Below, piece by piece: positions 11,193 through 46,486 of a stretch of DNA of 64,000 bases. Every line of letters begins with the position of its first letter. Position 1 is the stretch's first letter. Both the position numbers and the translations under genes were made by a program. Where the stretch lies: positions 16,415 through 80,414 of the forward strand of contig JBAYGW010000003.1 in NCBI GenBank assembly GCA_041666485.1, read 5' to 3'. The notes under the pieces are model-generated. The model worked only from the letters and a program-made list of their open reading frames with translations. It did not search any database and was not told the DNA's origin. The DNA is from Patescibacteria group bacterium. GTDB taxonomy: Bacteria > Patescibacteriota > Patescibacteriia > UM-FILTER-42-10.

Positions 11193-11200
11193 TATGAATA

Positions 11201-22907: not shown

Positions 22908-24497
22908 CTAGTGCCAGAACATCCGGCGATCGGTAAAGAGCATCGCGATGCCCAGTTTGTCCGCGGACCTGATTGAATCCTGGTCGCGAATTGAACCGCC
23001 CTGCTGGACGATCGTCTTGACGCCGAACGTGTCCGCCAGGCGCACGCAGTCGTCAAACGGGAAGAAGCTGTCGGACACCAGCACAGCATGGTGCAGATCC
23101 ATATTCTGCGCCTCCATGTTGTTCATGGCCTGCTCCAGAGCAAGCCGTGCCGACTTGATCCGGCTGGTCTGGCCGTTGCCGATGCCGATCGTCTGCCCGT
23201 TCCAGACCACGATGACCGAGTTGGACTTGACGTGCTTTGACACATTGCAGCCGAAACTGATATCCGACCAGTAGCGGTCCTTGACACCGAGCTTGGTGAC
23301 GCACCGGAACGACCTGCAGTCAAACAGCTCGGTGTCCATCAGCTGGACCACCATGCCGCCGGTCACCGGCTTGAAGTTCAGCGTGCCGAACGGCATGCTG
23401 CAGGAAAGCTCCCCACCCAGTTTGAACAGCGGGGTCTCTGCCCTGGCGCGCTTCTTGGTGATGTGTTCCATCGCCTCCGGCGAAAAATCCAGCGCGACGA
23501 TCGCGTCCACCTTCTGCACGCAGATGGTTTCAGCGACTTCCTCCGTCACCTGGAAGTTGAGTACCACCACCCCGCCGAAAGCCGATTCCGGATCGCACGC
23601 CAGTGCGTTCTGGAAAGCCTTCAGCGGACTGAAGCTGTCCATCGCCACTCCGCACGGCGTACCATGCTTGATGATCGCGACTGCGAATTCCGGGGACAGG
23701 TCGCGGACCGTCTCAATGCCGGCATTGATATCCAGCACAGTGGTGGCCGAGAGCGGCTTGCCCCAGATCTGCTTGGCGTTTGCCGCGGTGTAGCAGTTCA
23801 GACCCGGCAGTTCGTAGAACGCACCCGGCTGATGCGGATTCTCACCGTAGCGCAGATCACACTTCTTCTGCAGACGCTGAACCATCCGATCCGGGAAGCT
23901 GGGGAACTCAAGGCGTTCAGCCAGCCAGTCGGAGATCGTGGCGTCATACCACGCAGTGTGAAGAAACGCCTTGTAAGCCAGTTGCAGACGTTCCAGCGCG
24001 TTGAACCCGACATCTTCCGAAAGACACCGAATCACAAAGCCGTACTGCTCTGGTGAAGTGACCACCAGCACATGGCTGTGATTCTTCGCGGCCGCGCGGA
24101 TCAGTGCCACGCCGCCGATATCAATCTGCTCAATCGCGTCCCGAAATGCCACGGTCCGATCAGCCACCGTCTCTTCAAACGGATACAGGTTGACCACGAC
24201 CATGTCAAACGGGTAGATGCTGTGATCAAACAGCTCCTGCATGTGCGCGTCGCTGTCCTGATCCGCCAGGATCCCGCCGTGGATCTTCGGATGCAGAGTC
24301 TTCACCCTGCCACCCAGAATTTCCGGGAAACCGGTCACCTCCTCTACCGTTCGCACGGGAATTCCGGCTTCCACCAGGTGTCTGGACGTTCCGCCGGAAG
24401 ATACAATCTCCCAGCCATGTTCAAACAGCACGGTGGCAAGCTCAACAATGCCGCGCTTGTCGGACACGCTGATCAGAGCGCGCTGATTTGCTCGCAT
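22908..24497 (-). CDS. purH: bifunctional AICAR transformylase / IMP cyclohydrolase (high-GC gene)
   Basis: ALISVSDKRGIVELA MGS-like domain, GGRVKTLHPKIHGGILA, AICARFT domain; about 60% GC; AAAGGAG SD 7 nt before ATG at 24497. Confidence 0.85.
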   Translation of the reverse strand: MRANQRALISVSDKRGIVELATVLFEHGWEIVSSGGTSRHLVEAGIPVRTVEEVTGFPEILGGRVKTLHPKIHGGILADQDSDAHMQELFDHSIYPFDMVVVNLYPFEETVADRTVAFRDAIEQIDIGGVALIRAAAKNHSHVLVVTSPEQYGFVIRCLSEDVGFNALERLQLAYKAFLHTAWYDATISDWLAERLEFPSFPDRMVQRLQKKCDLRYGENPHQPGAFYELPGLNCYTAANAKQIWGKPLSATTVLDINAGIETVRDLSPEFAVAIIKHGTPCGVAMDSFSPLKAFQNALACDPESAFGGVVVLNFQVTEEVAETICVQKVDAIVALDFSPEAMEHITKKRARAETPLFKLGGELSCSMPFGTLNFKPVTGGMVVQLMDTELFDCRSFRCVTKLGVKDRYWSDISFGCNVSKHVKSNSVIVVWNGQTIGIGNGQTSRIKSARLALEQAMNNMEAQNMDLHHAVLVSDSFFPFDDCVRLADTFGVKTIVQQGGSIRDQDSIRSADKLGIAMLFTDRRMFWH

Positions 24498-24641
24498 TTC
24501 TGCTCCTTTCGTGGCAAACCGTGAAGCTTTCACCGCAAACAACCGTTTGGGAAACGGTTTTTTAACTTATCACTCCGACTGACGCAAGTCAAATCAAAAA
24601 CGGGTGACTTTCACCCGCATTTAATTATGAATGAATATGTC

Positions 24642-27527: not shown

Positions 27528-27645
27528 CTCAAGAGAATGATTAATATCTTGAATAAATATTTATTCACATGACTAATTCCATATTTTGTCTAAATTGGGT
27601 AAAATGTAACTATTGGAAAATATATATAATTAATTATCTAATAAA

Positions 27646-28602
27646 ATGATTAAAGAACCAACTCCAGGATTGGAGCAATCAAGAGAATTAATAGAAGAAC
27701 AAGGCCACAACACCAGTGTTCATTTTACATTTGTCCGTCATTCGCAGAAATCATCAGGTCAAGTTTTTGCAGAAGGTGGCAAGGGAATATCGCGATCAAG
27801 TATTTCCGAAGGAGGAAGACAGCGGGCAGAAGTTTATGGACGAGATCAAATGTCCAGTCGAAGAATAAATAAAGCTTATGCTACTAAAGTAGATAGAACA
27901 AAAGAAACATTAAATTATGCTTTTCAGGCAGCAGAAATAAATCCAGATATTCTACAAAAATCAGATAGCTCACAATCTTTCTTCTCACTGCCCGCTTTAT
28001 CGGGCAGTACAGAATTTAATAGACGTTATGATGCTATTATGCTTCCCGAAAGACAAAAATTTATTGACGGGCATTATCCGGGGAGGCAATTTAGTGAACT
28101 GACGCCAGATGAGCAAGAGGTAGCCGCAGAATACGCCGAGGAACCGGCCCTAGAATGGTATCTTTCATATAATAATGAACGACCCGATGAAGAAACACCA
28201 AGCCCGCGTGAACAGGCCGCCTCTGTTGCCTTCAAACTAAATCGACTCGTTAATTTAACGGATTTCATGCCAAATGGCAAAGAATTGGACCTTGTCAGTT
28301 CAGGACATAAAACATCTACTGAAGCATTGCTAAAATATATTATAGAACGACAAGAAAATGGCGAAGTAGTAGTGGGATTTGAAAGCTTGGAACAAATAGG
28401 TGGAAGTTTAAAGATTCTAGATAGCTGGGATTTATATGTTCAAAATGATGAAGGTGGAGAAAAGCATATCATGATGGTGTTGAGACGGGAAAATGGTGAA
28501 ACGCAGGAATATGGACTAAACAGTTCTATTCTAAATGAATTGGCAAAAGAATACATTGAGGCCAGCAGTTTGAAGCCTAAGAAAATAGACTCATTACAAT
28601 AA
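27646..28602 (+). CDS. histidine phosphatase superfamily-like protein
   Basis: 318 aa; FTFVRHSQK (RHG-like) near N-terminus and SSGHKTS near C-terminus. Confidence 0.4.
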   Translation: MIKEPTPGLEQSRELIEEQGHNTSVHFTFVRHSQKSSGQVFAEGGKGISRSSISEGGRQRAEVYGRDQMSSRRINKAYATKVDRTKETLNYAFQAAEINPDILQKSDSSQSFFSLPALSGSTEFNRRYDAIMLPERQKFIDGHYPGRQFSELTPDEQEVAAEYAEEPALEWYLSYNNERPDEETPSPREQAASVAFKLNRLVNLTDFMPNGKELDLVSSGHKTSTEALLKYIIERQENGEVVVGFESLEQIGGSLKILDSWDLYVQNDEGGEKHIMMVLRRENGETQEYGLNSSILNELAKEYIEASSLKPKKIDSLQ

Positions 28603-28606
28603 AGCT

Positions 28607-28936
28607 ATGGCAAAAATATTACTTACCGGCATAGGCGCCAGCCCAGGATATGTAGAAGGCACTGCACGACTATTTCATTCTGGCGATGAACTATTATCAT
28701 TTCATGATGGTGATATTTTAGTAACTATAATAACCGATCCAACCATGGTGACCGCGATGGTAAAAGCATCGGCAATAATTACAGATATCGGTGGTATTAC
28801 ATCCCACCCCGCAATCCTGAGTCGTGAAATGGGTATACCTTGTATTGTTAATACGAAGGAGGCAACAAAGATAATAAGAGATGGCATGCATATTAGTGTT
28901 GATGGTCAAAAAGGAGAAATTTATGTCCTGGATTAA
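28607..28936 (+). CDS. stand-alone PEP-utilising-enzyme mobile (phosphohistidine swivel) domain protein
   Basis: 109 aa; IITDIGGITSHPAILSREMGIPCIV matches the swivel-domain phosphohistidine signature. Confidence 0.7.
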   Translation: MAKILLTGIGASPGYVEGTARLFHSGDELLSFHDGDILVTIITDPTMVTAMVKASAIITDIGGITSHPAILSREMGIPCIVNTKEATKIIRDGMHISVDGQKGEIYVLD

Positions 28937-29990
28937 TGAGTTTACAAAATCAGCATCAAGTTTGTTTAAAGGTCAGATACTAGCAGGTTTCCAACCGCTT
29001 GATTTTAGTCACTTTCTTCCACTTTGGTATGCTCTATGGATTACTAATATTGCGCATACAATTAAAATACTGGACTTAGAATCAAAACATTTTGATGAAA
29101 TCAATGAAATACTTCCACCACCTTCCAACATGAGGGCAATTCTGGTAAAACTTATTCCCGCTTATTATGCTAATCCCACAAAAAATAAGAAGGATTACAA
29201 CATAGTAGCAAATTTTTTTGCGCGAATGCTTAAAGAATGCTGCCCAAATGATCCATTTGCTCTTAAATCAAATACCATTCATACAAGCACGGAAATTATT
29301 TCCCTTGTATCCAATATAAACTGGAATAATGCCGATATTCAAAGTGCGCGAAAAGTTGGCCAACTTATCACTGCAACCGGGTCACTTGTTCATGGTTTAT
29401 ATAACGACCTTGTAACGGATCTCGGCTGGGAAGTATATGGTCCATATATTTCAACAATAAAGCAAACATTACTAATACGTCTTTTCCCCAATCTCCAACC
29501 AAAAGAGCTATGGCCAGAAAAGTATTTAGCCAGCATGAAAGAAATTACTATCTATGCCACTTATGAAGATGTTGAATGGAATATTTCTTTTGTTGGCTGT
29601 CATACAATTTCTAATGGAAAAAGCCCAGTTGAAGGCATGACAAAATACGCAATTTACGGGGATGGAAAAAAATTAAATCTAATCAATACAGAAAATCTTA
29701 TTGATGAATTATCAAAGAAAGCAACAGATATTTATAGCAACATAAATAGTATGTCCTCTGAGAACCTTAAATTATTGGTTATGAGGCAAGAATGCTATCA
29801 ACTTAAATTATTGTTTGATGAAGCGGGAATCGATTGGCAGCCGACCGCTGAAATGATAGAAGTAGTTAAAAGCAAGCAAATTTTGCATGGAGTATTTCCG
29901 CGTGATAAATTTATTGAATCAACAGAGGAATTTAAGAAAATATTTGGCATTGATGTTTTTGAAAAAGAAATTCTGAATATTTTAAATTAA
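28923..29990 (+). CDS. hypothetical protein, translationally coupled to the swivel-domain gene
   Basis: 355 aa from ATG 28923 with AAAGGAGAAA SD; overlaps upstream stop by 14 nt; no known domain. Confidence 0.5.
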   Translation: MSWINEFTKSASSLFKGQILAGFQPLDFSHFLPLWYALWITNIAHTIKILDLESKHFDEINEILPPPSNMRAILVKLIPAYYANPTKNKKDYNIVANFFARMLKECCPNDPFALKSNTIHTSTEIISLVSNINWNNADIQSARKVGQLITATGSLVHGLYNDLVTDLGWEVYGPYISTIKQTLLIRLFPNLQPKELWPEKYLASMKEITIYATYEDVEWNISFVGCHTISNGKSPVEGMTKYAIYGDGKKLNLINTENLIDELSKKATDIYSNINSMSSENLKLLVMRQECYQLKLLFDEAGIDWQPTAEMIEVVKSKQILHGVFPRDKFIESTEEFKKIFGIDVFEKEILNILN

Positions 29991-30001: not shown

Positions 30002-30427
30002 ATGACCAAAGCACAAATCAAGGGACATCAAGTTGTTTGTTCCGCGTTTATAGAAAGAAATAAAAGGTTTTTGATTGTCATGGATCCCAAATTCAAAGTT
30101 TGGCGGGTTCCCGGAGGCAGACCGGAGCACGGTGAAAAGCTTGAAGATACTTTGATACGAGAAATGCAGGAAGAAACAGGTATAACATTTTCCGACCCCA
30201 AATTCATCGGCTTTGGCCAGGATCAGCAGTTTAAAGTGGATGATAAACTGGAAACATCGCGTTTGATTATGTATTTTCATGTGCATACCGACCAGGAACC
30301 GGTGCTTGACCCGAACGAAGCAGAACAGCACAAATGGGTTACGCTTGACGAACTCAAGGAAATAGATTTAGATAACAAGGAAGGGGCGCTTACCGATTTT
30401 TTTAATCGTAATCCGAATTTTAAATAA
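30002..30427 (+). CDS. NUDIX hydrolase
   Basis: GGRPEHGEKLEDTLIREMQEETGI Nudix box. Confidence 0.8.
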   Translation: MTKAQIKGHQVVCSAFIERNKRFLIVMDPKFKVWRVPGGRPEHGEKLEDTLIREMQEETGITFSDPKFIGFGQDQQFKVDDKLETSRLIMYFHVHTDQEPVLDPNEAEQHKWVTLDELKEIDLDNKEGALTDFFNRNPNFK

Positions 30428-30434
30428 AACATTT

Positions 30435-30812
30435 ATGAATGAAAATGTCATAGTCAAAGAGTCAAGTATCAATAATAAAGGCGTTTTTGCCACACGCGAT
30501 TTTAAAAAGGGTGAAGTAGTGCTCCCCTGGCAGACAAATACTATCCTAACCATGGAAGAAGTTAAAAAATTGCCGGCATCAGAAAGAAACTATATCGCCA
30601 ACTATGCGGGGGGTAAATATCTGCATCAACAAGAGCCGGAAAGATATGTTAACCACTCCTGCGATCCGAATACAGAAACTGGTGATGATTGTGACGTAGC
30701 GATCAGAGATATTAAATCTGGTGAAGAAATTACTTCCGATTATTCCAAGGCAAAGTTTAATATGCACTTTGTATGCAACTGCGGGAGTAAAAATTGCCGC
30801 AAGTATATTTAA
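30435..30812 (+). CDS. SET-domain protein (putative lysine methyltransferase) with post-SET Cys cluster
   Basis: 125 aa; NHSCDPN, GEEITSDY, C-terminal CNCGSKNC. Confidence 0.7.
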   Translation: MNENVIVKESSINNKGVFATRDFKKGEVVLPWQTNTILTMEEVKKLPASERNYIANYAGGKYLHQQEPERYVNHSCDPNTETGDDCDVAIRDIKSGEEITSDYSKAKFNMHFVCNCGSKNCRKYI

Positions 30813-30838
30813 GTATATATACTTTAAATGATTGAATC

Positions 30839-31297
30839 ATGTCGGATCAACGAAAAGTAATCCCGGGAGTACATCTCATTTTCCAAAAATATAATAATGA
30901 CATCGGCGAGAACGAGTATCTGCTCCACAAGCGCATGAATACCAACTTTTTTGACAAACACTTTTCCGTTCCCGGCGGGCATATTGATGATTATGAAACC
31001 CCTACCGACTGCGTGGTACGCGAAGGAAAAGAAGAACTTGGTGTGGATATTGATCCAAAATACATAAAATTTGCTAATGTACTTTACAGGATTAAAAAAT
31101 CCGATCATGAAGTGCGCATTGACTTTTGCTACATCATTACCAAATGGAAAGGCATATTGAAGGCCAATGAACAGCATAAACACTCTGAGCCGGCCTGGTA
31201 TCCACTCAGCAAATTCCCTACACCCGTAGTTCCTTATGTATTGCAGGCAATACAAGATATTGAAAGTGGAATTGCATACACAAAGACAGATATTTAG
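30839..31297 (+). CDS. NUDIX hydrolase
   Basis: GGHIDDYETPTDCVVREGKEELGV Nudix box. Confidence 0.75.
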   Translation: MSDQRKVIPGVHLIFQKYNNDIGENEYLLHKRMNTNFFDKHFSVPGGHIDDYETPTDCVVREGKEELGVDIDPKYIKFANVLYRIKKSDHEVRIDFCYIITKWKGILKANEQHKHSEPAWYPLSKFPTPVVPYVLQAIQDIESGIAYTKTDI

Positions 31298-31351
31298 TGG
31301 GGAATAAGAATCATAATAATAACCTGGGTGCAAGAATTTAATTCAATATAA

Positions 31352-31789
31352 ATGTTTACAATCGGAACATTCGGCATAATCAAAGATGAAAATGAACGGG
31401 TATTACTCTGTCACCGCCGGGATTATGATTTTTGGAATCTGCCTGGAGGCGGAGTAAAAGAAAATGAAACTCCCTGGGACGCTGTAATTCGGGAAATAAG
31501 GGAAGAAACGGGACTGGAAGCTCGGATCACTCACCTCTCGGGCGTGTACAGCAAGCCGGATAAAAATGAAATTGTGTTTTCTTTTGTTTGCGAAATAGCG
31601 GGCGGGGAAACTACTTTAACTGACGAGGCGGACAAAATAGCATATTTTGAAGTTGACCAGATTCCTAAAAATACTTCCCCGAAACAAGTGGAACGGATCA
31701 AAGATTATTTTGCTGATCCATCCAAAACCCACTACAAGGCGCAAACCGGCGCGTCATCAATTGATCTGATCAAAGCGGGAAGACTTTAA
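31352..31789 (+). CDS. NUDIX hydrolase
   Basis: GGGVKENETPWDAVIREIREETGL Nudix box. Confidence 0.8.
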   Translation: MFTIGTFGIIKDENERVLLCHRRDYDFWNLPGGGVKENETPWDAVIREIREETGLEARITHLSGVYSKPDKNEIVFSFVCEIAGGETTLTDEADKIAYFEVDQIPKNTSPKQVERIKDYFADPSKTHYKAQTGASSIDLIKAGRL

Positions 31790-33191: not shown

Positions 33192-34784
33192 TTATTGGAT
33201 GATTCCTCCACCCACCTGAACGCCGTTTCGGTATTCAATTGCATAAGGGAAAAATCCGGCATTGATGATCGGCTGGCCGTAGCGGTTGAAAATTCTGACA
33301 TGCGGTCCTCCGCCCGGCCCGGCACCGGTAATGATTTCATCCCTACCATCCTGATCCAAATCAGCGATTCCGACATTTACTCCCCCTCGGAATGCGGTAT
33401 CATAGGCGAAAAATCCCGGAGTGAACTTAATATTGCCATAGGGGTCAAAAATTCTGACGTGCGCTCCCATTCGTACATTGGTTCCGGTAATTATCTCGTC
33501 CCGTCCGTCTTTATCCAGGTCGCCGGCGGCAACTTTAATGCCGTGCCGGAGATCTTCACGATACGCAAAAAATCCCGGAGAAAATTTCAGATTGCCGTCT
33601 CCGCCAAAAACACGTACATGCGGACCGCCGCCGGATTCTGTACCGGTAATTATTTCTGATTTACCGTCTCCGTCCAGATCGCCGGCTGCAACTTTTACAC
33701 CCAGTAAATAGTTATAATTATAGGCGGAAAATTCCTTTAACAAATAATATTTTCCGTCACGATATTCAAATACTCTTACTAAGTGCCCGCCGACTCCGGC
33801 GCCAGTGATTATTTCTTTTGTTCCGTTACCGTTTACATCCCCAATCGCAACATTGACACCGCCGCCGAAATTTTCGTCATAAGCCATGAAAGAATTTATC
33901 TGTATTCCTTCAATATTAAACAATCTGACTTCCGGTTTTCTGCCGTCCTGCGGACCGACAACGACTTCCGCTATCCCGTCCAGTGTGATATCACCAACAG
34001 CCAGATTTACTCCGCCGAGAAATTCTTTTTCATATACCAAAAATTCTCTGACAAAATTGCCGTCTTTTCCGAAAACTTTAACGTATGGCTCCTCCCATTT
34101 GCTGGTAGCAACAACAATGCCGGTTGATTTTGAGTCACCGATAACCTGAGGAGTTGGAATATTTGTCTGATCATCATCCTTGATCGGGACAGACGGTGTT
34201 GTCCGTGCAGTAATTTTCAGTTTATCCTGATTGCTGAAACTAAACATCATTGATGCTTCATAAGCATTTCTATCAGCATAATAGATATCTACCGTATGTT
34301 TGGATTCTGTTATCGTCTCTATTGCTGTTTTAGTACGTGCGGCATGAACACCGGAATTATCAATCACCAATCTTCCGTCAAAATATACCCATGAATCATC
34401 ATCACTGGTTATGGACAGGACATAGTCGCCAGGAAAATCGGTTGTAACATAAGACTGCCAGTGAACACCGAAATTTCGGTCGTGTCCCAGATTATCCTCT
34501 TCCTTTGCAGAATCAAACGGGAAAAAATTATTACCAAAATTCAAATTATCATCAATTCTGGCAAAACGAAAATACTTATTGTCATACCAGTCAGTATCCC
34601 AAGTGCCTAGCGGATTGCCGTGATTATTATCAGGCCACTTCGCACTGGGAACTGCCATATCAGGATGTAACTCAGAATAGTTATAATACCTGCCATACCA
34701 GCCGGTATCACCTTCCGCACTACGTACCCCGAACGGGATAAATAATCCGACTACTGCCAAAATTAATATTGATTTTTTAATCAT
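33192..34784 (-). CDS. secreted PA14-domain protein with FG-GAP/integrin-alpha-like repeats
   Basis: 530 aa; signal peptide; PA14-like N-terminal region (GDYVLSITSDDDSWVYFDG); repeated GD.D.DG..EIITG FG-GAP units. Confidence 0.7.
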   Translation of the reverse strand: MIKKSILILAVVGLFIPFGVRSAEGDTGWYGRYYNYSELHPDMAVPSAKWPDNNHGNPLGTWDTDWYDNKYFRFARIDDNLNFGNNFFPFDSAKEEDNLGHDRNFGVHWQSYVTTDFPGDYVLSITSDDDSWVYFDGRLVIDNSGVHAARTKTAIETITESKHTVDIYYADRNAYEASMMFSFSNQDKLKITARTTPSVPIKDDDQTNIPTPQVIGDSKSTGIVVATSKWEEPYVKVFGKDGNFVREFLVYEKEFLGGVNLAVGDITLDGIAEVVVGPQDGRKPEVRLFNIEGIQINSFMAYDENFGGGVNVAIGDVNGNGTKEIITGAGVGGHLVRVFEYRDGKYYLLKEFSAYNYNYLLGVKVAAGDLDGDGKSEIITGTESGGGPHVRVFGGDGNLKFSPGFFAYREDLRHGIKVAAGDLDKDGRDEIITGTNVRMGAHVRIFDPYGNIKFTPGFFAYDTAFRGGVNVGIADLDQDGRDEIITGAGPGGGPHVRIFNRYGQPIINAGFFPYAIEYRNGVQVGGGIIQ

Positions 34785-34912: not shown

Positions 34913-36415
34913 TTAGGTAATTGTAAAAATATTGATTTTTTCAATCGCTTTCTTTGCCAGTTCAATTCTTTCCCTGCGATTCGCGTAAAAAGTGAACAGT
35001 TTACTACCCTTTTTAACTTCCTGTCCAACCCTTTTGTGGAGGTAAATGCCGGCCAATTTTTCTGAAGGCGCACCTAGTGTTCTCGCAATTTCGTCAATTG
35101 CTTTATTATCTACTGCGGTTATTTTACCTGACTTTGCGGAAAGTACACGGTAATACTCACCGCCTAAGACCACTGCGTCGGAATCAATTGTAGAATTACC
35201 ACCCTGTTCCTTGATCACCACCTGCATTTTTTTCCACGCCTTACCTGATACCAGAATTTCTTCCGCAACTGATTTTCCCTTACCGCGCGCCACCTGCCCC
35301 GATATTTCCAGAAGTTTTCCCGCCAAAACCAGTGCTTTATCTTCTAAATCTTTCGGCCTGTTACTTTTTTGCTGCAATACCCGGAGAACATCGCGTGATT
35401 CCAAGGCCGGTCCAACCCCTCTGCCGACCGGTTCATTGGCAAAAATTTTTTCAACATGTATTTTAATCCCAAAACGCTTGCCAAGATACATAAACTTTTT
35501 TTCAATCTCATTCGCGGTCTTCATATCCGGAATTTTTGAGGTGATTCCGACCGGCATATCAATCACCAGATACTTGATACCCATGGCAACTTTTTTCGCC
35601 ATAATACTTACCACCATTTTATCAAACGGTTCCAAGGAGAGTGGTTTTGTCACCTGAATAATCAAATCATCCGCCGGAGCAATATTTAAACCACCGCCCC
35701 AGATCATACATACTTTGTTTTTCATCACCATTTGTTTGATTCTGGTCATGGAAAATCCGACCGGAGCCAATACTTCCATAGTATCCGCCGTACCCGACGG
35801 TGAAGTGATCGCCCGGGAGGAGGTTTTTGGAATATATAAACCAAAGGCTGCAACAATCGGAACAACAATCATAGTTGTCCTATTGCCGGCCAAACCGCCG
35901 ACGGAATGTTTATCAACTACAATTTTATTTCCGGAAAATCTCAACTGCTCGCCGGTTTCCGCAATTGATTTTGTAAGATAATACAGCTCCAGTGGAGTAT
36001 AAGGCCTTGCAAAACTAGACGCGACAAAATATGATGTTTCCACCGGTCCGAGTCTGCGGCTGACAATATCTGCTATGATTGAATGAATTTCCTCATAACT
36101 TAAAACACCGCCCTTAATTTTCTTATTAATTGCTTTTACTGATTCCGGACGTTCAACGATTGAAACCTCAATGATTTGATCTTTCTTCATCGGGTACTTC
36201 GCCCAGATCTCTTCAAAAAAACCGATCTCCCCCGGCTTTATTTCATTTTCCGCCAGGTTTACAGTAGCAAATATTCTTTTACGGTTATGCCAGGACAAAC
36301 CGATATGGTCATTAGCATGAATACCAAAATTGAGGGCTTCTTTTTCATTTAAAAGCACCTTCGGCATCTCGCCGGTTTCAATATCAATTTTTTTTGCCCT
36401 TAAATAAAATGCCAT
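34913..36415 (-). CDS. AMP phosphorylase (thymidine phosphorylase family, archaeal-type)
   Basis: 500 aa; N-terminal extension plus pyrimidine-nucleoside phosphorylase core (DKHSVGG, TSSRAITSPSGTADT). Confidence 0.8.
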   Translation of the reverse strand: MAFYLRAKKIDIETGEMPKVLLNEKEALNFGIHANDHIGLSWHNRKRIFATVNLAENEIKPGEIGFFEEIWAKYPMKKDQIIEVSIVERPESVKAINKKIKGGVLSYEEIHSIIADIVSRRLGPVETSYFVASSFARPYTPLELYYLTKSIAETGEQLRFSGNKIVVDKHSVGGLAGNRTTMIVVPIVAAFGLYIPKTSSRAITSPSGTADTMEVLAPVGFSMTRIKQMVMKNKVCMIWGGGLNIAPADDLIIQVTKPLSLEPFDKMVVSIMAKKVAMGIKYLVIDMPVGITSKIPDMKTANEIEKKFMYLGKRFGIKIHVEKIFANEPVGRGVGPALESRDVLRVLQQKSNRPKDLEDKALVLAGKLLEISGQVARGKGKSVAEEILVSGKAWKKMQVVIKEQGGNSTIDSDAVVLGGEYYRVLSAKSGKITAVDNKAIDEIARTLGAPSEKLAGIYLHKRVGQEVKKGSKLFTFYANRRERIELAKKAIEKINIFTIT

Positions 36416-36516: not shown

Positions 36517-37761
36517 TTACTTATCCCCATCCTTCCAATGTCTGAGCGCAACGGCTAACTCTCCGTGGTCTTTGGCATACTCATCCAGATCAATCCCCGC
36601 AAGCGTCGCGTCTAATGCCTGTTTAACGGCTGTCGCTCCGGCAAATGTTCCTTCCGGATGACCATGGATACCCCCGCCAAAATTCAGAATTACATCTTTG
36701 CCGAATATTTTATAAAGCGAAGGTATTAAATTGGGATACAACCCGCCTGATGCGATCGGGAATGTTGATTTAATATTAAACCACTTACTGCGCAGAAAAT
36801 CATCTATTTCAACTACATCACTTTTTCCACCCTCCATTTTCCCCACAACCGTGCCGGTGTGCAGCTGATCAATACCTGCCAGACGCGCCAATTTTGACAG
36901 CACTAGCATACTCATTCCATGTTTTTGGTTCTTAGTGAACATAGAATGCCCAGCTCTGTGACCGTGAATTATAAGACCTAAATCCCGTTTGCGTAACATT
37001 TGCACATTATCAAGTCCTACGGAAACCATGTCAATCATTACCACTTCACCGCCGAGGCTTTTGACCAGCTGCGCTCTTTTGATCATTTCATCCGGTTGTG
37101 CTGTTACATTAAACACGCACAATTTTTTGCAGCCTGTTTCTTTTTCCGCTTTATCCCTCATTTTAAGAGTAAGCCGGACTCGCTGATCAAATCGGCTGAA
37201 AGAAAGGTCGGTTAAATTTTCATCATCTTTGACCAGATCAATTCCACCGATAAAGACCTGGTAAGACAGTGTGGCATGCTGCAGAGCGGACAAGCCCAGC
37301 TTTGGTTTCAGAATTGATCCCAGTATGGGCCGGTCATAAATTCCCATAATGCGCCTGATCCCTTTTATGCCGAAACGCGGGCCCTGAAAACTTTCAACAT
37401 ATTCTTTCGGAAAGTCTACATCCACTAATCTGAGATTCCTTATGATCTTCATACTAAAAACATTACCCGCCACACCGGATAAAAATTGCGGGATGCTCCC
37501 CTTTTCAAAAAGCGCCAAGGGATAGGCAACTTTGAATGTATGGGCTTTTTTATCAATATCATATGCTTTCGCGCTCAGCTTCGTGAATGTTGCTTTGGAT
37601 AATGTGGCAAGATCCGTCCAGGTTCCAATAGAAGATTCCGCCGCCACTCCGCCCGCCGCATCGTTAAAATCAACATTGGTATCCATATAGAATGAAGCGA
37701 CAAGTTCTGTTTTCTTCGGCTGATAGCTTTTTTTTACAAATTTTTGGTAAAATTTATTCAT
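36517..37761 (-). CDS. rbcL: ribulose-1,5-bisphosphate carboxylase large subunit, form III-like
   Basis: MNKFYQKFVKKSYQPKK N-terminus, GGIDLVKDDE, K-D-E Mg site region; start at MNKF to avoid overlap with upstream isomerase. Confidence 0.85.
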   Translation of the reverse strand: MNKFYQKFVKKSYQPKKTELVASFYMDTNVDFNDAAGGVAAESSIGTWTDLATLSKATFTKLSAKAYDIDKKAHTFKVAYPLALFEKGSIPQFLSGVAGNVFSMKIIRNLRLVDVDFPKEYVESFQGPRFGIKGIRRIMGIYDRPILGSILKPKLGLSALQHATLSYQVFIGGIDLVKDDENLTDLSFSRFDQRVRLTLKMRDKAEKETGCKKLCVFNVTAQPDEMIKRAQLVKSLGGEVVMIDMVSVGLDNVQMLRKRDLGLIIHGHRAGHSMFTKNQKHGMSMLVLSKLARLAGIDQLHTGTVVGKMEGGKSDVVEIDDFLRSKWFNIKSTFPIASGGLYPNLIPSLYKIFGKDVILNFGGGIHGHPEGTFAGATAVKQALDATLAGIDLDEYAKDHGELAVALRHWKDGDK

Positions 37762-37762
37762 A

Positions 37763-38719
37763 TTATAGATTCTTGAAAATCCATGGATAATGCTTTTCAA
37801 CTAAATAAGCAACATCACGTGGCTTAATAATACCAAATTCACAAATTATTCCTTTGATGAATTTAGATGGAATGCGGTCAAAAGCGAAATTGATTATTTT
37901 TAATCCTTTCGGACCGTTCGGCCAGATTTCTTTGCGATCCCGCAATTCAATGCCAACATATTTGCTGATAAATGTTTCCGGATCGGTTTTTAAAAGTGAA
38001 GCGGCGACATAAACCGGAATTTTTTCGTGGTTAGCAACCTGGGCGATTCCGTAGCTACCGACTTTGTTGATCACTGAGCCGCCGGATGTAACCGAGTCTG
38101 CACCCAAAAAAGCAATATCCACCATCACTTCCCGGCCACTGGTTCTGCTGATCAGAAAAGCGGCAGCTGAATCAGCCACCATTGTGACGTCAATCTTTCG
38201 CTTTAATAGATTCTTAGCTGTTATTCGCCCCTGGAAAAGCGGGCGGGTTTCTGTACAAAAAACATGCGGCATCTTTGAATGTTTATTAGCCTCAGTAATA
38301 ATATGCTCCACAGTTGAAGAATGGCAGTGCGTGAATACTTTCATATCTTGCTTAATCAGTTTTGCGCCGGCTACGGCAATTTTTTGATCATGATATTTCA
38401 GCAAAACTAAAAAAAGATGGCAAGCTTTTTTTAGCAACTTCGCCAACTCAGGCACGGATAAACCTTCTTTATTATTCTCTAAATAATGTAAAACGAATTG
38501 GACTGAATTACGGGACAGCGGTTCGGTCGGCCTTGCTTCCGCCAAGGCTTTGCCACTTTTACGAATAGCAGAAAGAAACTGGCTTTTATTTTTTTTTAGC
38601 AATTGATTACTTTCCAACTGCAACGCGTCCAAAATTACTTTGGTTATCTGCGTTGCACCCTGTATTTCTAAAGATGCTATTTTTGTTACTGTTTTTTGTA
38701 CTGCGCTATTCATAAACAC
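37763..38719 (-). CDS. ribose-1,5-bisphosphate isomerase (eIF-2B alpha/beta/delta-like)
   Basis: 318 aa; e2b2 family fold pattern; adjacent to RuBisCO and AMPpase. Confidence 0.75.
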   Translation of the reverse strand: MFMNSAVQKTVTKIASLEIQGATQITKVILDALQLESNQLLKKNKSQFLSAIRKSGKALAEARPTEPLSRNSVQFVLHYLENNKEGLSVPELAKLLKKACHLFLVLLKYHDQKIAVAGAKLIKQDMKVFTHCHSSTVEHIITEANKHSKMPHVFCTETRPLFQGRITAKNLLKRKIDVTMVADSAAAFLISRTSGREVMVDIAFLGADSVTSGGSVINKVGSYGIAQVANHEKIPVYVAASLLKTDPETFISKYVGIELRDRKEIWPNGPKGLKIINFAFDRIPSKFIKGIICEFGIIKPRDVAYLVEKHYPWIFKNL

Positions 38720-38734
38720 AGTATACCATTTATA

Positions 38735-40558
38735 TCATTCCCATTCAATCGTCCCTGGCGGCTTGTTGGTGAAATCAAAAACAATCAAATCTATTTGTTT
38801 TATTCTTTTTAAGCGTCCGACAACCTGGTCAATAAAAGATCGGGACAACGGGAAATACTTGACCGTCATTGCTTCCTCCGATTGCACGGGGCGCAAAATT
38901 ACTGTGTAGCCGCCCGCAATGGAATATGGGGCCAGGATTACGGGAAATTGCCAGATTTTAGAATCCAGTCGGGCTTTTTTCATTTCAGACTGTACTATGT
39001 CGTCAATATTCTGCAGTAGAGCCACGTTTTTTTTCGTCAGCAGAAGTTTAATATTTTTTCCTCCGCTAATATCTTTTTTCCTGCTAAAAATCACCCAGCA
39101 CACCCGATTTACATTTTGAATCTGATTTGCCACGAGCGGACCGAGCTTTTGCATTTGAATAGTATTCATTTCTCCGGAGAAAACCGCGGGATGGGCGTAA
39201 GTCCGTTCATCGCCCTGAACGCCCACACTTCTGACCGGTAGTACCCAGCCTTTAATATCTGATTTGTTCTCATAATTGAACTGCGAGATTATTATATCCA
39301 AATCGGCATTTTCTTTCTTTACATTTACATGCACCTTATTTCCCCGGGAACAAATTATACGGATTGCCAACCCCGGACCGGGAAATGGATGACGATTGAT
39401 AATTTCTCCAGGCAAGCCGATCTGCTTGCCGAGCTGCCGTACTTCGTCTTTGTACAAGTCTTTCAAAGGCTCAATGACCAACCCGCGTTTTATTAATTCC
39501 AAAACTTCTTTTACCCGATTATGGTGTGTTTTTATTTTATCGGCGTGCTTCGTCCCGCCCGATTCAATTGTATCCGGATAAATAGTCCCCTGCGCCAGAA
39601 TCCATTCCTTTGGATTCAGTTTGAATTTCTTCATCGCAATTCTTTGAACATCCAGATACGTCCTGCCGATAATCTCGCGTTTGCGTTCCGGACTGATAAT
39701 ACCTTTTAACCTCTTATAGAATAGTACGGAAGCATCCATTACTTCCAGATTGGTAAACCCTAGTTTATTGAAACGTTTTTTTATTTCCTCTGATTCATTT
39801 TTTCTCATGAACCCCAGATCAATATGCAGACCAAACACCTTTTCTTTGCCCAAGATCCGATTCAGTAACCCGAAACATACGGCAGAATCAACTCCGCCGG
39901 AAACCAGCAAAAATACCTTGCGACTTCCTACTTTCCTAACTATCTCTTTTTCAATATCAGTTAAGTAATGTTTAATATCCCATTCCTTTTTAGCGCCGCA
40001 GATACTGAAAACAAAGTTATTAATTAATTCCATTCCACGTTCTGTATGTGATACTTCGGGGTGAAACTGGACTCCGTATATTTTCATTATGCTGTTTCCC
40101 ATCGCTGCTACCGGGCAATCAGCAGTCTTTGCCATGACTTTAAATCCCTTCGGCACATTTAATACAAGATCACCATGACTCATCCAAACCTGTTCGTTTG
40201 CACCAAATTTCCTGAACAGCTTGCCGGGTTCAATTACTGACAGGTTGGCAAAACCATATTCTCTCACATCACCCCTGACTACTTTTCCGCCCATTAGATA
40301 GGTGATCAGTTGGTGACCATAGCAAACACCTAGGATTGGTACGCCGCTTTTCAGTATTCTCCGGTCAAATTTTATTTTCCCGTCATAAACGCTGTTTGGT
40401 CCGCCGGACAGGATTATTCCCCAGGACGACCTTAATTCTTCAAGTGGCGTTTCGGGATTGTAAATATTAGCTAAAACACCAAGTTGCCGGATTCTGCGTG
40501 CAATCAGGTGGGTATATTGTGAACCAAAATCCAGAATTGTTATGTGTTTTTGTTTCAT
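38735..40558 (-). CDS. guaA: GMP synthase (glutamine-hydrolysing)
   Basis: 607 aa; class-I GATase N-terminus, SGGVDSAV PP-loop, C-terminal ...PPGTIEWE. Confidence 0.9.
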   Translation of the reverse strand: MKQKHITILDFGSQYTHLIARRIRQLGVLANIYNPETPLEELRSSWGIILSGGPNSVYDGKIKFDRRILKSGVPILGVCYGHQLITYLMGGKVVRGDVREYGFANLSVIEPGKLFRKFGANEQVWMSHGDLVLNVPKGFKVMAKTADCPVAAMGNSIMKIYGVQFHPEVSHTERGMELINNFVFSICGAKKEWDIKHYLTDIEKEIVRKVGSRKVFLLVSGGVDSAVCFGLLNRILGKEKVFGLHIDLGFMRKNESEEIKKRFNKLGFTNLEVMDASVLFYKRLKGIISPERKREIIGRTYLDVQRIAMKKFKLNPKEWILAQGTIYPDTIESGGTKHADKIKTHHNRVKEVLELIKRGLVIEPLKDLYKDEVRQLGKQIGLPGEIINRHPFPGPGLAIRIICSRGNKVHVNVKKENADLDIIISQFNYENKSDIKGWVLPVRSVGVQGDERTYAHPAVFSGEMNTIQMQKLGPLVANQIQNVNRVCWVIFSRKKDISGGKNIKLLLTKKNVALLQNIDDIVQSEMKKARLDSKIWQFPVILAPYSIAGGYTVILRPVQSEEAMTVKYFPLSRSFIDQVVGRLKRIKQIDLIVFDFTNKPPGTIEWE

Positions 40559-40711: not shown

Positions 40712-42187
40712 ATGTTTACCCAGTTTGAAGAAACATTAACATTTGATGATGTATTGTTAGTTCCGCAAAAGTCATCAATTCTTCCGAATGAAACCGAGAT
40801 TAAAACCAGGCTGACACGCAGGATAAATTTAAATATTCCATTAATCTCATCCCCGATGGACACTGTAACCGAACACCGGCTGGCGATCGCCCTGGCACTG
40901 CACGGCGGAATCGGGATAATTCATAAAAATATGCCTGCCGACAAACAGGCGCAGGAAGTAAGTTTTGTAAAAAGATTTGAAAACGGCTTTATTGAAAATC
41001 CTGCCACACTGCAGCCGGAAGATCCGATTGATGACGCGGCGGAAATTAGAGACAAAAAAGGATACAAAAAAATTCCGATTGTTGATAAAAACAACAAGCT
41101 GGTGGGAATGATTACCGAGCAGGATTATTTCGTGCCCGACGATTTGAAACTGCCGATAAAATTTAAAATGAAACGTTTGAATGAAATTGTGGTCGCTAAG
41201 CACGGCATCACCCTCCAACAAGCAAATAAAATTATTAGGGAGAAAAAGCTCACCGCATTGCCGATCGTTAATAAGCAGGGAAAACTGGTTAGTATGGTTA
41301 CCAGAAAAGATTTGGAAAAAAACGAGCAGCACCCCAATGCCTGCAAGGATGATAAAAAACAACTGCGGGTCGGTGCCGCTATTTCCGTCGGCCCGGAAGC
41401 TCTGGAACGCGCCAAATATTTGGTTGCCGCCGGAGTAGATGTATTGGTCGTTGATACCGCTCACGGCCATACTAAGGGCGTATTGGATACGGTAAGAGCG
41501 CTGAAAAAAAATAAATTGTTTTCTAATATTGATATCATCGCCGGGAATGTCGCAACAGAAGAAGGAACCAGAGATCTGATCAGGGCTGGTGCGGACGCTG
41601 TAAAGGTAGGGGTCGGGCCGGGATCAATCTGTACCACCAGAGTAATTGCGGGGATCGGTGTACCACAAATCAGCGCGATTCTGGCGGCGGTAAAAGGCCG
41701 GGGTAAATCCAATATTCCCATTATTGCTGACGGCGGTATCCGATACTCAGGCGATATAGTAAAAGCACTTGGTGCTAAAGCGGATTCCGTAATGATCGGC
41801 AGTCTTTTTGCCGGTTGTGAAGAAACACCAGGTGAAATAGAGTATGAAGGTGGCAAAATGTATAAATCCTACCGCGGGATGGGTTCAAAAGAAGCCATGA
41901 TCCACGGATCCAAAGACCGTTACGGACAGGGAGAGCAAAAAGACAGTGAAAAACTGGTGCCGGAAGGTGTATCAGCCAGGGTTATTTATAAAGGGCTGGT
42001 TTCAAGACACATATATCAGTTGATCGGCGGGATTAGATCCGGTATGGGTTATATCGGCTCTAAAACAATTTCGGAGTTGCACAGGAAAGCAAGATTTATT
42101 AAAATCAGCTCTGCGGGACTGCGAGAAAGTCATCCACATGATGTAACAATTACAAAACAGCCGCCAAATTATCATTCGGAAAAATAA
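40712..42187 (+). CDS. guaB: IMP dehydrogenase
   Basis: 491 aa; GIGIIHKNM, tandem CBS, catalytic GSICTT loop, GGIRYSGDI. Confidence 0.9.
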
Positions 42188-45364: not shown

Positions 45365-46486
45365 ATGATTAAAGCCATCATATTTGATTTCGGGAACGTT
45401 ATAGCCAGTTTTGACAATGGTTTATTTTTGAAAAAAATTTCCAAATATACCAGTAAATCTATTGACAAGTTGTATGAACTAATCTATAAAAAATCAAAAC
45501 TGCCAAGCCAATACGAACAGGGAAAAATTAACTCCGATGAATTTTACAACCAAGTTGTAAAACTATGTGATCTGAAAATCAGTCAGATACAATTTAGAGA
45601 CGCCTATACTCAGATATTCACACCGATTCCGGAAACAATTGAGCTGATTAATGCACTTAAGCCAAATTATAAGCTGGGGCTTTTATCCAGCACCAGCGAG
45701 TGGGATTTTGAATTTGGATTCAAACCGCTAATTGATGTGTCTATTTTTGATTCAATTACATTAACCTATCAGCTAGGAATTAAAAAACCGGATCCGAAAT
45801 TATTTCACGATGCTTTAAATAAACTGAGTGTTGCCCCAAACGAAACTGCCTATATTGATGATCTCCCGGAAACAATTGAAGTAGCCAATAATCTGGGTAT
45901 TCATGGAATATTATTTACCGGTAATGACACCCTGCAAGCATCACTGCATAAACTGGGGGTTGAAGTTAATAATACCTACCGCCCGAATTATGTGCAAAAA
46001 GTTACGATAGCTGACGAGAATGACAAAAAAATTGGATACAAATACCGGGATCAAATCACAGAGACAGATATTTTTCGGGCGACCGGCTTGTGGATTACCA
46101 ATTCAAAAGGCGAAATACTTTTAGCCCGAAGAGCACTGTCAAAAAAAATGCATCCGGGATTATGGAGTACCGCCGTTGCCGGAACAGTTGAAGAAGATGA
46201 AACATACGAACAAAATGTAATCAAAGAAGCTGAAGAGGAACTTGGTATCGTTGGCGAAACTTTTATTCCGTATGAAAAAACCAGAATCCGAGGAAAACAC
46301 AATTTCTTCATCCAATGGTACACTTTAGTCATAAATAAAAAAGCTGAGGAATTCATGTTGCAACCAGAGGAAGTGGTTGAAGTAAAATGGTTCAAAAAAT
46401 CCGAGCTAAAATTGTTGCTGAAAGAAAAACCGGAAATATTTACGTCTTCGCTGCCTCAGTGGGTATCTTTATTCCTGGCGAAATAG
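45365..46486 (+). CDS. HAD-like hydrolase / NUDIX hydrolase fusion protein
   Basis: N-terminus IIFDFGNV (HAD motif I), C-terminal Nudix box GLWSTAVAGTVEEDETYEQNVIKEAEEELGI. Confidence 0.65.
   Translation: MIKAIIFDFGNVIASFDNGLFLKKISKYTSKSIDKLYELIYKKSKLPSQYEQGKINSDEFYNQVVKLCDLKISQIQFRDAYTQIFTPIPETIELINALKPNYKLGLLSSTSEWDFEFGFKPLIDVSIFDSITLTYQLGIKKPDPKLFHDALNKLSVAPNETAYIDDLPETIEVANNLGIHGILFTGNDTLQASLHKLGVEVNNTYRPNYVQKVTIADENDKKIGYKYRDQITETDIFRATGLWITNSKGEILLARRALSKKMHPGLWSTAVAGTVEEDETYEQNVIKEAEEELGIVGETFIPYEKTRIRGKHNFFIQWYTLVINKKAEEFMLQPEEVVEVKWFKKSELKLLLKEKPEIFTSSLPQWVSLFLAK

Follow-up and report, generated by a model that had tools for sequence, protein, structure and literature searches.

A stand-alone phosphohistidine swivel domain linked to an unannotated protein family in Patescibacteria, possible parts of a dikinase divided among separate proteins

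The DNA analysed here, which we call the window, is a stretch of 64,000 nt from contig JBAYGW010000003.1 (GCA_041666485.1) of a Patescibacteria group bacterium (UM-FILTER-42-10). Three ORFs on its forward strand, at positions 27646-29990, encode proteins of 318, 109 and 355 aa and make up the cassette described below (Table 1). Only 4 nt separate the stop codon of the first gene from the ATG of the second, and the start of the third overlaps the stop of the second by 14 nt. For the 355-aa protein, whose longest ORF opens at 28881, we prefer the ATG at 28923 because the homologues all begin with MxWI; a GGAG lies ahead of this codon. The identical overlap recurs at 24 of the 28 related loci in which the two genes are separate, in support of the translational coupling proposed in a preliminary description of this DNA. 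A scan for promoters and terminators gave nothing over shuffle expectation, and no forward-strand terminator was found between 27500 and 31800. The four genes that follow are co-directional with the cassette (gaps of 11, 7, 26 and 54 nt, in order, counted from the 355-aa gene) and may be co-transcribed with it.

Table 1. Features of the cassette and the genes downstream (positions in the window)
Feature	Position	Strand	Basis
Presumed promoter region, AT-rich intergenic, 118 nt	27528-27645	+	Sequence
318-aa histidine-phosphatase-superfamily protein (family A2)	27646-28602	+	Pfam, alignment, AF2, Foldseek
Free-standing swivel domain of the PEP-utiliser type, 109 aa (phospho-His carrier)	28607-28936	+	PF00391
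Translational-coupling junction	28913-28936	+	GGAG 28913-28916, ATG 28923, TAA 28934-28936
355-aa protein (355fam), presumed acceptor site	28923-29990	+	AF2, conservation, fusions
NUDIX	30002-30427	+	Pfam
SET domain	30435-30812	+	Pfam
NUDIX	30839-31297	+	Pfam
NUDIX	31352-31789	+	Pfam

The NUDIX and SET genes do not belong to the conserved cassette, and a SET neighbour is shared by only one related locus (L007). A look at neighbourhood conservation, as had been suggested earlier, showed that the pairing of the second and third genes is conserved while the genes outside the cassette are not; NUDIX, SET, phosphoribosyltransferase, glycosyltransferase and AbiEii genes are all met among the relatives. 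Genes for TrmB regulators, divergently oriented, adjoin many of the cassettes. A defence-system origin was rejected, PADLOC having given only one weak, chance-level match (the 318-aa protein to UzuA, E 0.008), as was a phage origin, since the family is encoded on no viral contig.

The 109-aa protein matches the Pfam family PF00391 with an E value of 1.3e-25 (89 bits; cut-off 23.1) and spans the swivel part only of PEP synthase, corresponding to positions 355-461 of the 798 in the NCBIfam model. Its best match is an archaeal PEP synthase (PDB 8a8e, residues 377-481, E 4.7e-30), with an identity of about 50%, judged by eye from the printed alignment; the rifampin phosphotransferase model NF041857 is matched as well (E 5e-23). 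As in the rest of the superfamily, this mobile domain has a catalytic His within a GGxxxH loop: the motif GGITSH is intact (G72-H77), and the candidate catalytic residue, H77, aligns with the catalytic loop of 8a8e. Loop motif and His are kept in all 28 cassette swivels. Thr75, which corresponds in position to the Thr that is regulatory in PEP synthase and PPDK, is kept in 27 of them. The swivel is also the most conserved of the three proteins, with a median identity of 65% (50% for the 355-aa family and 38% for the phosphatase), which fits a carrier that docks on several partners.

The family of the 355-aa protein, here called 355fam, is unannotated. It comprises 392 clusters (50% identity), and wherever a source carries a name it is one of the Patescibacteria. 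The description of the protein as unannotatable held up: it has no match in Pfam, NCBIfam or PADLOC, Pfam found no family in any of the 46 355fam members, and the PDB sequences gave no match to the protein alone or to the family profile. The AF2 model is confident (pLDDT 93.8, pTM 0.91) and predicts eight helices, six consecutive strands and then further helices. Foldseek found no match to this fold in the PDB or among the BFVD viral structures, the best PDB results (E 0.08, TM 0.14) being unrelated chains. The two folds that had been put forward for checking, ATP-grasp and TIM barrel, are both wrong for this protein. A PEP/pyruvate TIM barrel (PEP-utilizers_C) was rejected for want of a (beta-alpha)8 pattern and of any Pfam, NCBIfam or Foldseek match, and a rifampin-binding domain was rejected because a Foldseek search of the PDB, which includes 5fbs and 5hv1, was without match. 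Profile comparison of 355fam with three rifampin-phosphotransferase-like proteins from Patescibacteria, in which another domain is joined to a swivel, gave hhalign probabilities of at most 0.15.

Conserved throughout the superfamily of 355fam are P25, D110, D162, G173-P174-Y175, W197, Y214, W305 and P307; R71, Y160 and H227 are conserved less strictly. The polar and aromatic residues among these (D110, D162, Y175, H227, W197 and W305) suggest, from the alignment, a ligand pocket. No DNA-binding or output domain was detected.

The linkage between swivel and 355fam is far above chance. At each of the 33 distinct loci for which upstream DNA is available, the swivel is adjacent or fused to 355fam, so that the outcome that would have told against a common system, an unrelated 355-aa family with no co-occurrence, did not materialise, and the co-occurrence counts rule out chance adjacency. 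The two are fused in several cases (P0074, L015, L023, P0220 and P0290). The simplest arrangement is that of P0074, swivel plus 355fam in 466 aa. The 771-aa P0290 contains PPDK_N (47-286), swivel (319-389) and 355fam (458-754), the domain order of PEP synthase except that 355fam stands where the TIM barrel would be, and a further fusion, the 697-aa P0150, joins 355fam to PPDK_N. In fusions of the P0186/P0220 type, an N-terminal domain of about 325 aa had no match locally or in the PDB. Together with the intact swivel, the pairing at every informative locus and these fusions support the earlier proposal of a stand-alone swivel acting in a split or novel phosphotransfer system.

The match of the 318-aa protein to His_Phos_1 is below threshold (E 0.036, 14.2 bits against a gathering cut-off of 21.7). 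Of the 37 members of its family, A2, 29 match the same model at E<=1, the best at 1.8e-7. R31, H32, R84 and H221 are invariant in the 37 sequences, R31 and H32 lying within an RHS in the window protein; the family thus has the RHG-type motif with a candidate nucleophilic His, a second Arg and a second His, as expected of the superfamily. Absence of the catalytic His or Arg had been named among the outcomes that would tell against the phosphotransfer proposal; the family keeps these residues and has the matching fold. The AF2 model (pLDDT 89.4) has the phosphoglycerate-mutase-like alpha/beta fold, and Foldseek returned 240 PDB matches at E<=0.001, which cover both branches of the superfamily; histidine acid phosphatases, RosC, BPGM and PGAM5 are all matched with probability 1.0. 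A large helical cap (about residues 122-204, some 80 residues) and a C-terminal extension that forms a beta subdomain (233-291) hold the TM scores down to 0.4-0.5. The acidic residues D215 and E226, invariant in the alignment, are candidate proton donors.

The phosphatase is a less regular companion than 355fam. Its gene lies downstream of the other two at three loci (L016, L040 and L043) and between them at one (L029), and at four (L007, L008, L012 and L018) there is no adjacent phosphatase. Its slot at L037 is occupied by a protein without homology to it, a calcineurin-like phosphoesterase (PF00149, E 4.8e-7), a substitution that argues for a hydrolytic role of the slot. Proteins of about 235 aa encoded upstream at other loci form a family, A3, most members of which have Asn for the second His. 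A3 had no match in Pfam and no significant hhalign match to A2 (E 0.15 and 0.073), the RH motif and second Arg nevertheless being aligned in register; on this alignment its members are probable histidine phosphatases. Among ten metagenome loci found with the A2 profile, eight have an A2-type phosphatase adjoining a swivel protein, in two of them a full-length protein running from PPDK_N to swivel. A2 occurs with 355fam and with rifampin-phosphotransferase-like domains, two acceptor modules unrelated to each other, and is best read as an accessory that other swivel dikinases of Patescibacteria have as well.

The preliminary description had noted that no ATP-grasp or PEP-binding domain is encoded nearby, and this was borne out. 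A phmmer search with two PPDK_N (PF01326) domains, run on all stop-to-stop ORFs of the window from 50 aa upwards, found none. Pfam scans of the large window ORFs, like the precomputed annotation covering the middle ~21 kb, showed neither PPDK_N nor PEP-utilizers_C. An ATP-grasp domain is nearby in only 4-5 of about 35 related loci, and PPDK_N is absent within about 6 kb of most of them. Instances in the same protein or operon include the fusions P0290 and P0150 and the loci L010, L001 and L049. Phosphatase, swivel, 355fam and ATP-grasp come together in four relatives (L010, L001, L038 and L049): L010 has the three cassette genes and a stand-alone PPDK_N of 312 aa, and at L001 a large rifampin-phosphotransferase-like ORF adjoins the cassette. 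Because ATP-grasp is present in these four relatives with the phosphatase still in place, we favour an ATP-grasp acting in trans over a phosphatase that replaces it. Stand-alone PPDK_N proteins of ~312 aa are abundant (7748 clusters at E<=1e-40, the top 120 all of ~310 aa); the matches carrying a source name are from Patescibacteria/Parcubacteria, and the genes cluster with swivel-bearing proteins and A2-type phosphatases. We infer that the donor for the window system is probably encoded elsewhere in the genome.

We somewhat favour a model in which the cassette encodes, as individual proteins, components of a swivelling-domain dikinase akin to PEP synthase, PPDK or rifampin phosphotransferase. 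The 109-aa protein would be the mobile carrier, phosphorylated on His77, most likely by an ATP-grasp (PPDK_N) protein from elsewhere in the genome. It would then dock on the 355-aa protein, produced in fixed proportion through the 14-nt overlap, which would provide the second substrate site, a part played in canonical enzymes by the TIM barrel for PEP/pyruvate or by the domain that binds rifampin. The overall reaction expected is ATP + acceptor + H2O -> AMP + Pi + acceptor-P. As accessory phosphatase, the 318-aa protein would most probably act on the phosphorylated product, or on something derived from that product; the alternative target is the phospho-carrier itself. The TrmB neighbours, the conserved aromatics of 355fam and the nucleotide-salvage context of the window give a hint, and only that, of a nucleotide or sugar as the substrate.

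Several observations do not sit easily with the dikinase. ATP-grasp is missing from the window and is rare near its relatives, a kinase and a phosphatase at one site would make a futile cycle, and four loci have no adjacent phosphatase. We found no third conserved enzyme that could use a phosphorylated intermediate. The association of A2 with two unrelated acceptor modules fits a common target, the swivel, better than one specific product. A bolder version, which we consider unlikely, would see in 355fam a domain of new structure, acceptor or catalytic, that has taken over from the TIM barrel and makes or consumes an unrecognised phosphometabolite, with His-to-His exchange between the phosphatase-fold protein and the free swivel, so that the cassette and an ATP-grasp would form an undescribed soluble phospho-relay.

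The 318-aa protein could instead serve the dikinase as a carrier phosphatase, acting on phospho-His77 or on Thr75 to reset or regulate the swivel. The histidine phosphatase superfamily includes SixA, which takes phosphate off NPr, a phospho-His carrier of the PTS (PMC7948535, PMC6282199). The swivel is the element common to the A2-linked systems with unrelated acceptors, and Thr75 keeps the regulatory position in nearly all swivels. The replacement at L037 also agrees with a protein target, as its GDIHG motif is typical of PPP/ApaH-type phosphatases, some of which act on phosphoproteins. We nonetheless think this role improbable. SixA is small, about 160 aa, and is not known to have a cap, and large caps in the superfamily usually enclose small-molecule sites; the 318-aa protein, far from a minimal uncapped core, has both its cap insert and an extra C-terminal subdomain, and in structure it comes closest to acid phosphatases and mutases that act on small molecules. 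Constitutive co-expression of such an enzyme with its target would, moreover, drain ATP.

A more radical departure does without ATP-grasp altogether: phosphate would pass from a phosphometabolite to His32 of the 318-aa protein, on to His77 and finally to an acceptor on the 355-aa protein, or in reverse. PPDK_N is missing from the window and from the surroundings of most related loci, and the order phosphatase, swivel, 355fam mimics the donor, carrier and acceptor of PEP synthase. A covalent phospho-His intermediate is established chemistry for histidine phosphatases. HpeH alone, without its ATP-grasp partner, exchanges phosphate between two phenolic substrates (PMC12167813). Against this transphosphorylase, the phosphatase is retained where ATP-grasp is present and is therefore an addition, not a substitute; its gene varies in position or is missing; the L037 metallophosphoesterase works without a covalent intermediate; and transfer from a phosphomonoester to phospho-His is energetically uphill. 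Such a scheme is distinctly improbable.

A kinase that inactivates xenobiotics or antibiotics in the way of rifampin phosphotransferase, the 355-aa protein binding the drug, is very improbable: the swivel's match to NF041857, the rph-like genes reported in CPR genomes (PMC8651080) and the ORF adjoining the L001 cassette speak for it, whereas neither Foldseek nor hhalign shows any likeness, in fold or in sequence, between 355fam and the rifampin-binding domain, the domain order (swivel, then acceptor) and the best swivel match are those of PEP synthase, a dedicated phosphatase would reverse the inactivation, and the family is known only from Patescibacteria among named sources, with no plasmid or phage association seen. 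Least credible is a regulatory phospho-His module in which the swivel phosphorylates or allosterically controls the 355-aa protein as effector, in the manner of VadK, a PPDK derivative without PEP/pyruvate domain that phosphorylates itself and serves as a regulatory His kinase (PMC13400623); kinase-phosphatase pairs are typical of signalling and divergent TrmB regulators are frequent neighbours, but 355fam occupies the exact catalytic acceptor place in the fusions, its conserved polar and aromatic residues suggest a ligand pocket, and it has no detected DNA-binding or output domain.

Swivelling-domain dikinases are a small, mechanistically distinctive class whose members are defined by the second substrate domain, for pyruvate, glucan, rifampin or phenols. 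If the dikinase model holds, 355fam would be a further second-site module, one without Pfam family or PDB fold match, in organisms whose metabolism is still mostly inferred from annotation. A stand-alone ATP-grasp beside several swivel-bearing proteins and a histidine-phosphatase-fold partner is common in Patescibacteria genomes, which suggests a modular phosphotransfer system with one donor and many acceptors. The identity of the substrate could bring to light a step, so far overlooked in these reduced organisms, that consumes ATP or, run backwards, yields it, and with only three or four small soluble proteins the hypothesis is open to direct testing in vitro.

Among known systems, VadK (Rv1127c) resembles the cassette as a PEP-utilising-enzyme derivative without the PEP/pyruvate domain. 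In VadK, however, ATP-grasp and swivel share one chain, no acceptor domain has been put in place of the lost one, and the role is regulatory, in mycobacteria. SixA and NPr offer the same pairing of a histidine-phosphatase-fold protein with a phospho-His carrier of the PEP-utilising/PTS world, but that carrier is HPr-like whereas the one here is, from its sequence, a swivel domain, and SixA is minimal where the 318-aa protein is elaborated by its cap and C-terminal subdomain.

Split dikinases have been characterised in HpeHI, CreHI and PpsAB, the phenylphosphate synthase (PMC12167813), and the dikinase AcvAB shares an operon with the phosphatase AcvF (bioRxiv 10.1101/2022.04.28.489975). These four have a separate ATP-grasp subunit, like the stand-alone PPDK_N of L010; in them and in rifampin phosphotransferase the second site binds a non-pyruvate ligand, as is predicted here; and the Acv and phenol pathways also include an operon phosphatase, though of the HAD family rather than the histidine phosphatase superfamily. 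Their rifampin-binding-domain homologue is N-terminal to the swivel in one chain, as it is in rifampin phosphotransferase (RPH), whereas in the window a free swivel precedes an unrelated domain. Their hosts and aromatic substrates are likewise unrelated to the present case.

PEP synthase and PPDK differ from the cassette in their TIM barrel, where we find an unrelated alpha/beta protein; in a single polypeptide for what are here three or four separate ones; and in carrying ATP-grasp, which the window lacks, while the cassette adds a histidine-phosphatase-fold partner. They are also its closest kin: the swivel is nearest to that of archaeal PEP synthase and keeps GGxTSH, the swivelling-His mechanism is presumably shared, and the fusion P0290 runs, from N to C terminus, through ATP-grasp, swivel and second-site domain just as PEP synthase does.

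The system to which the cassette belongs comprises four components: an ATP-grasp protein, a phosphohistidine swivel domain, the family of the 355-aa protein (355fam) and a phosphatase, which is an addition to the ATP-grasp protein and no substitute for it. This follows from four-gene sets and fusions. [quoted passage not shown] Protein P0074 fuses swivel and 355fam, and P0150 (697 aa) fuses 355fam and PPDK_N. P0290 (771 aa) carries PPDK_N (residues 47-286), PEP-utilizers (319-389) and 355fam (458-754), the architecture of PEP synthase, except that 355fam stands where the PEP/pyruvate domain would be. The ORFs of every fetched locus were compared with a profile of each cassette protein: the swivel was the adjacent gene, or fused to 355fam, in 33 of 33 distinct loci with upstream DNA. 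Fusions, four-gene sets and linkage support and sharpen the proposal, made in the preliminary description, of a split or novel phosphotransfer system around a lone swivel domain, and we consider it highly probable that swivel and 355-aa protein are parts of a single phosphotransfer enzyme.

The window, part of a Patescibacteria (CPR) metagenome-assembled genome, contains all three ORFs described at 27646-29990 (see table), the first two separated by 4 nt; NCBI names give the locus tags WCT33_01235 (318 aa) and WCT33_01245 (355 aa). The longest ORF for the 355-aa gene would open at 28881. We place the start at 28923 because homologues all begin MxWI..F, matching the ATG there, and because GGAG precedes it (28913-28916). 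With this start, the gene shares 14 nt with the end of the 109-aa gene, TAA included; an identical overlap in 24 of the 28 loci with separate swivel and 355fam genes is in keeping with the suggested translational coupling. Compared with their counterparts in the window, proteins of 14 loci have a median identity of 65% (swivel), 50% (355-aa protein) and 38% (phosphatase). No terminator was predicted between the cassette and the three NUDIX hydrolase genes and 125-aa SET-domain gene that come after it. A bacterial SET-domain protein among NUDIX genes is unusual; a SET-domain gene also lies just 5´ of the cassette in L007 (4804-5181).

Coordinates of features in the window and in related loci
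Feature	Sequence	Coordinates	Strand	Remarks
318-aa gene	window	27646-28602	+	ORF call
109-aa swivel gene	window	28607-28936	+	ORF call
355-aa gene	window	28923-29990	+	ORF call; start set from homologues
NUDIX (three) and SET-domain genes	window	30002-31789	+	gaps 7-54 nt
530-aa protein gene	window	33192-34784	-	N-terminal signal-like segment
AMP phosphorylase-like gene	window	34913-36415	-	Glycos_trans_3N/Glycos_transf_3/PYNP_C
RuBisCO large subunit gene	window	36517-37800	-	side by side with AMP phosphorylase-like gene
IF-2B-family gene	window	37763-38719	-	adjoins RuBisCO gene
GMP synthase gene	window	38735-40558		follows AMP-pathway genes
IMP dehydrogenase gene	window	40712-42187		follows GMP synthase gene
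PurH gene	window	22908-24542	-	MGS + AICARFT/IMPCHase
M29 peptidase gene	window	55796-56923	+	in 56-58 kb high-GC block
Long no-family ORF	window	55868-56962		opposite strand to M29 peptidase gene
HAD-phosphatase + NUDIX fusion gene	window	45365-46486	+	373 aa
GH77 4-alpha-glucanotransferase gene	window	6671-8161	+	
PPDK_N, X-domain-swivel and A2 cluster	L034	3033-7176		
PPDK_N, X-domain-swivel and A2 cluster	L035	2654-5954		
PPDK_N, X-domain-swivel and A2 cluster	L036	474-5936		

The 109-aa protein, which belongs to the PEP-utilising superfamily, matches PF00391 (E 1.3e-25), covers only positions 355-461 of the 798-position NCBIfam PEP synthase model, and aligns best in the PDB with residues 377-481 of an archaeal PEP synthase (8a8e, E 4.7e-30). 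As previously described, it is a complete mobile carrier domain with no further domain. The catalytic loop GGITSH is intact, with His77 as the catalytic residue, as is Thr75, which aligns with the regulatory Thr of PEP synthase and PPDK; the catalytic His is kept in every swivel of the related loci.

Whether the 355-aa protein might supply an ATP-grasp or PEP-binding TIM-barrel fold had been raised, and the prediction speaks against both. Alone or as a family, it had no match in Pfam, NCBIfam, PADLOC or PDB sequences. Its very confident AlphaFold model (pLDDT 93.8, pTM 0.91) is helical in its N-terminal half and its C-terminal part, with six consecutive beta strands (170-246) in between, and Foldseek matched it to nothing in the PDB (best E 0.08, TM 0.14) or BFVD. 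Given this layout and the lack of sequence or fold matches, the protein is neither an ATP-grasp nor a TIM barrel. Each of P25, D110, D162, G173-P174-Y175, W197, Y214, W305 and P307 is kept in 85% or more of 105 superfamily members, and each of R71, Y160 and H227 in 70-85%; this acidic, His and aromatic set suggests a ligand pocket.

355fam is a real but narrow family, with 89 clusters at 90% identity, 392 representative clusters at 50% identity (E<=0.001) and 26 loci among 185,579 species genomes. Record titles name Uhr-, Magasanik-, Doudna-, Davies-, Gracili- and Saccharibacteria, all Patescibacteria, and Moraniibacteriota appear among the protein names; we take five titles reading "uncultured Gammaproteobacteria" to be mislabelled. 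The family was not found in the viral contigs searched. Some genomes have tandem swivel-355fam duplicates within one operon (L005 5688-8451, L042 4149-6949), the second copy highly divergent (~27% identity by hhalign in L005; GCHT changed to SASH), and in L023 (2798-4216) the paralogue is a 472-aa swivel fusion. Other 355fam paralogues, with or without an intervening swivel, are fused to a ~325-aa N-terminal domain that had no Pfam, PDB or local match (P0186, P0204, P0225, P0220, P0230).

Consistent with the earlier statement that no ATP-grasp or PEP-binding domain is encoded near the cassette, PPDK_N was absent from every stop-to-stop ORF of at least 50 aa in the 64-kb window, and neither PPDK_N nor PEP-utilizers_C, the PEP/pyruvate TIM barrel, was found in its annotated and large ORFs. 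Stand-alone PPDK_N proteins of ~312 aa abound: 7748 clusters reach E<=1e-40, of which the top 120 are all ~310 aa, and the matches with a named source belong to Patescibacteria or Parcubacteria. Their genes cluster with one to three proteins of 341-507 aa that combine an X-domain with a C-terminal swivel, and with a phosphatase of the type of A2, the family of the 318-aa protein, suggesting that one ATP-grasp donor serves several acceptor subunits. Given this abundance and clustering, it is plausible that the ATP-grasp protein of the window genome is encoded elsewhere in the genome. In L001 (closed Moraniibacteriota genome CP064975), a 1521-aa ORF right after the cassette (7077-11642), for which the public gene call covers the last 578 aa only, has PPDK_N at its start and two swivel domains; a giant multi-module dikinase, a gene fusion and a mis-assembly are all possible explanations.

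Taken alone, the 318-aa protein matched His_Phos_1 below threshold (E 0.036). Of its 54 homologues, the source-named ones are from Patescibacteria; 37 were aligned, and R31, H32, R84 and H221, which correspond to R-H...R...H of the histidine phosphatase superfamily, are invariant in them, while 29 of the 37 match His_Phos_1. Its AlphaFold model (pLDDT 89.4), with a large helical insert (~residues 122-204) and a C-terminal beta subdomain, matched histidine acid phosphatases, RosC, bisphosphoglycerate mutase and PGAM5 with Foldseek probability 1.0, which supports the proposed superfamily. A phosphatase gene adjoins swivel/355fam in most loci, lying 5´, 3´ or between them: A2 in 17 loci, the ~235-aa RH-motif family A3 in ~8, other RHG-containing proteins in L015 and L038, and a non-homologous calcineurin-like phosphoesterase in L037 (PF00149, E 4.8e-7); in four loci no phosphatase is adjacent. 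An independent search of metagenomes for A2 phosphatases gave 10 loci; in 8 of them A2 adjoins a swivel protein, which in two cases is a full-length PPDK_N...swivel enzyme. In A3 (upstream gene in L004, L005, L013, L025 and L028), R-H and a later Arg are invariant, Asn replaces the second catalytic His in most members (LNFE versus SHFE), and superfamily membership is a candidate assignment (hhalign E 0.07 only); a TrmB regulator in divergent orientation accompanies the gene in nearly all cases. In L037 (4618-8370), where TrmB also lies upstream in opposite orientation, a stand-alone swivel and the phosphoesterase (GDIHG motif) precede a ~325-aa-domain fusion gene.

The likeliest scheme follows that of PEP synthase, PPDK, rifampin phosphotransferase and three split dikinases already characterised, HpeHI, CreHI and PpsAB (PMC12167813, PMC4844700): the ATP-grasp protein would load His77 of the free swivel, which would dock on the co-translated 355-aa protein and hand its phosphoryl group on to a bound acceptor, although transfer may also run in reverse. 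We lean towards this overall scheme. The phosphatase may act at either of two points. Action on the product, or a derivative, is favoured by the large cap domain of the 318-aa protein, by the likeness of its predicted model to small-molecule phosphatases, and by the precedent of AcvAB/AcvF, a dikinase and phosphatase in one operon. Action on the phospho-carrier is favoured by the company that the phosphatase keeps with swivel systems having unrelated acceptor domains, and by the SixA-NPr precedent. Conserved aromatics, TrmB neighbours in many loci and the nucleotide-salvage genes around the window cassette hint weakly at a sugar or a nucleoside/nucleotide as acceptor; no flanking genes beyond the cassette are conserved among related loci.

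The salvage genes, ~5 kb from the cassette, are the AMP phosphorylase-like, RuBisCO and IF-2B-family genes (the last taken to be ribose-1,5-bisphosphate isomerase) of the nucleotide-salvage (AMP) pathway, which has been described in archaea and CPR. PurH lies in a 2-kb block of 50.7% GC (~40% elsewhere), and a second block (56000-58000, 51.6%) also takes in the start of a 2-hydroxyacid dehydrogenase gene; genes of both may be horizontally acquired. The 530-aa protein, whose L032 counterpart has a PA14 domain and FG-GAP repeats (precomputed Pfam), is putatively a surface or adhesion protein.

The literature searched held no description of 355fam, nor of an association between histidine-phosphatase-fold proteins and dikinases in Patescibacteria. 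The cassette falls outside PEP synthase/PPDK proper because it has no TIM barrel, and outside the rifampin-phosphotransferase/HpeH family because it has no rifampin-binding-like domain and a different domain order. We class it as a split dikinase of the PEP synthase kind, in which the second-site protein is uncharacterised and a phosphatase is the partner.
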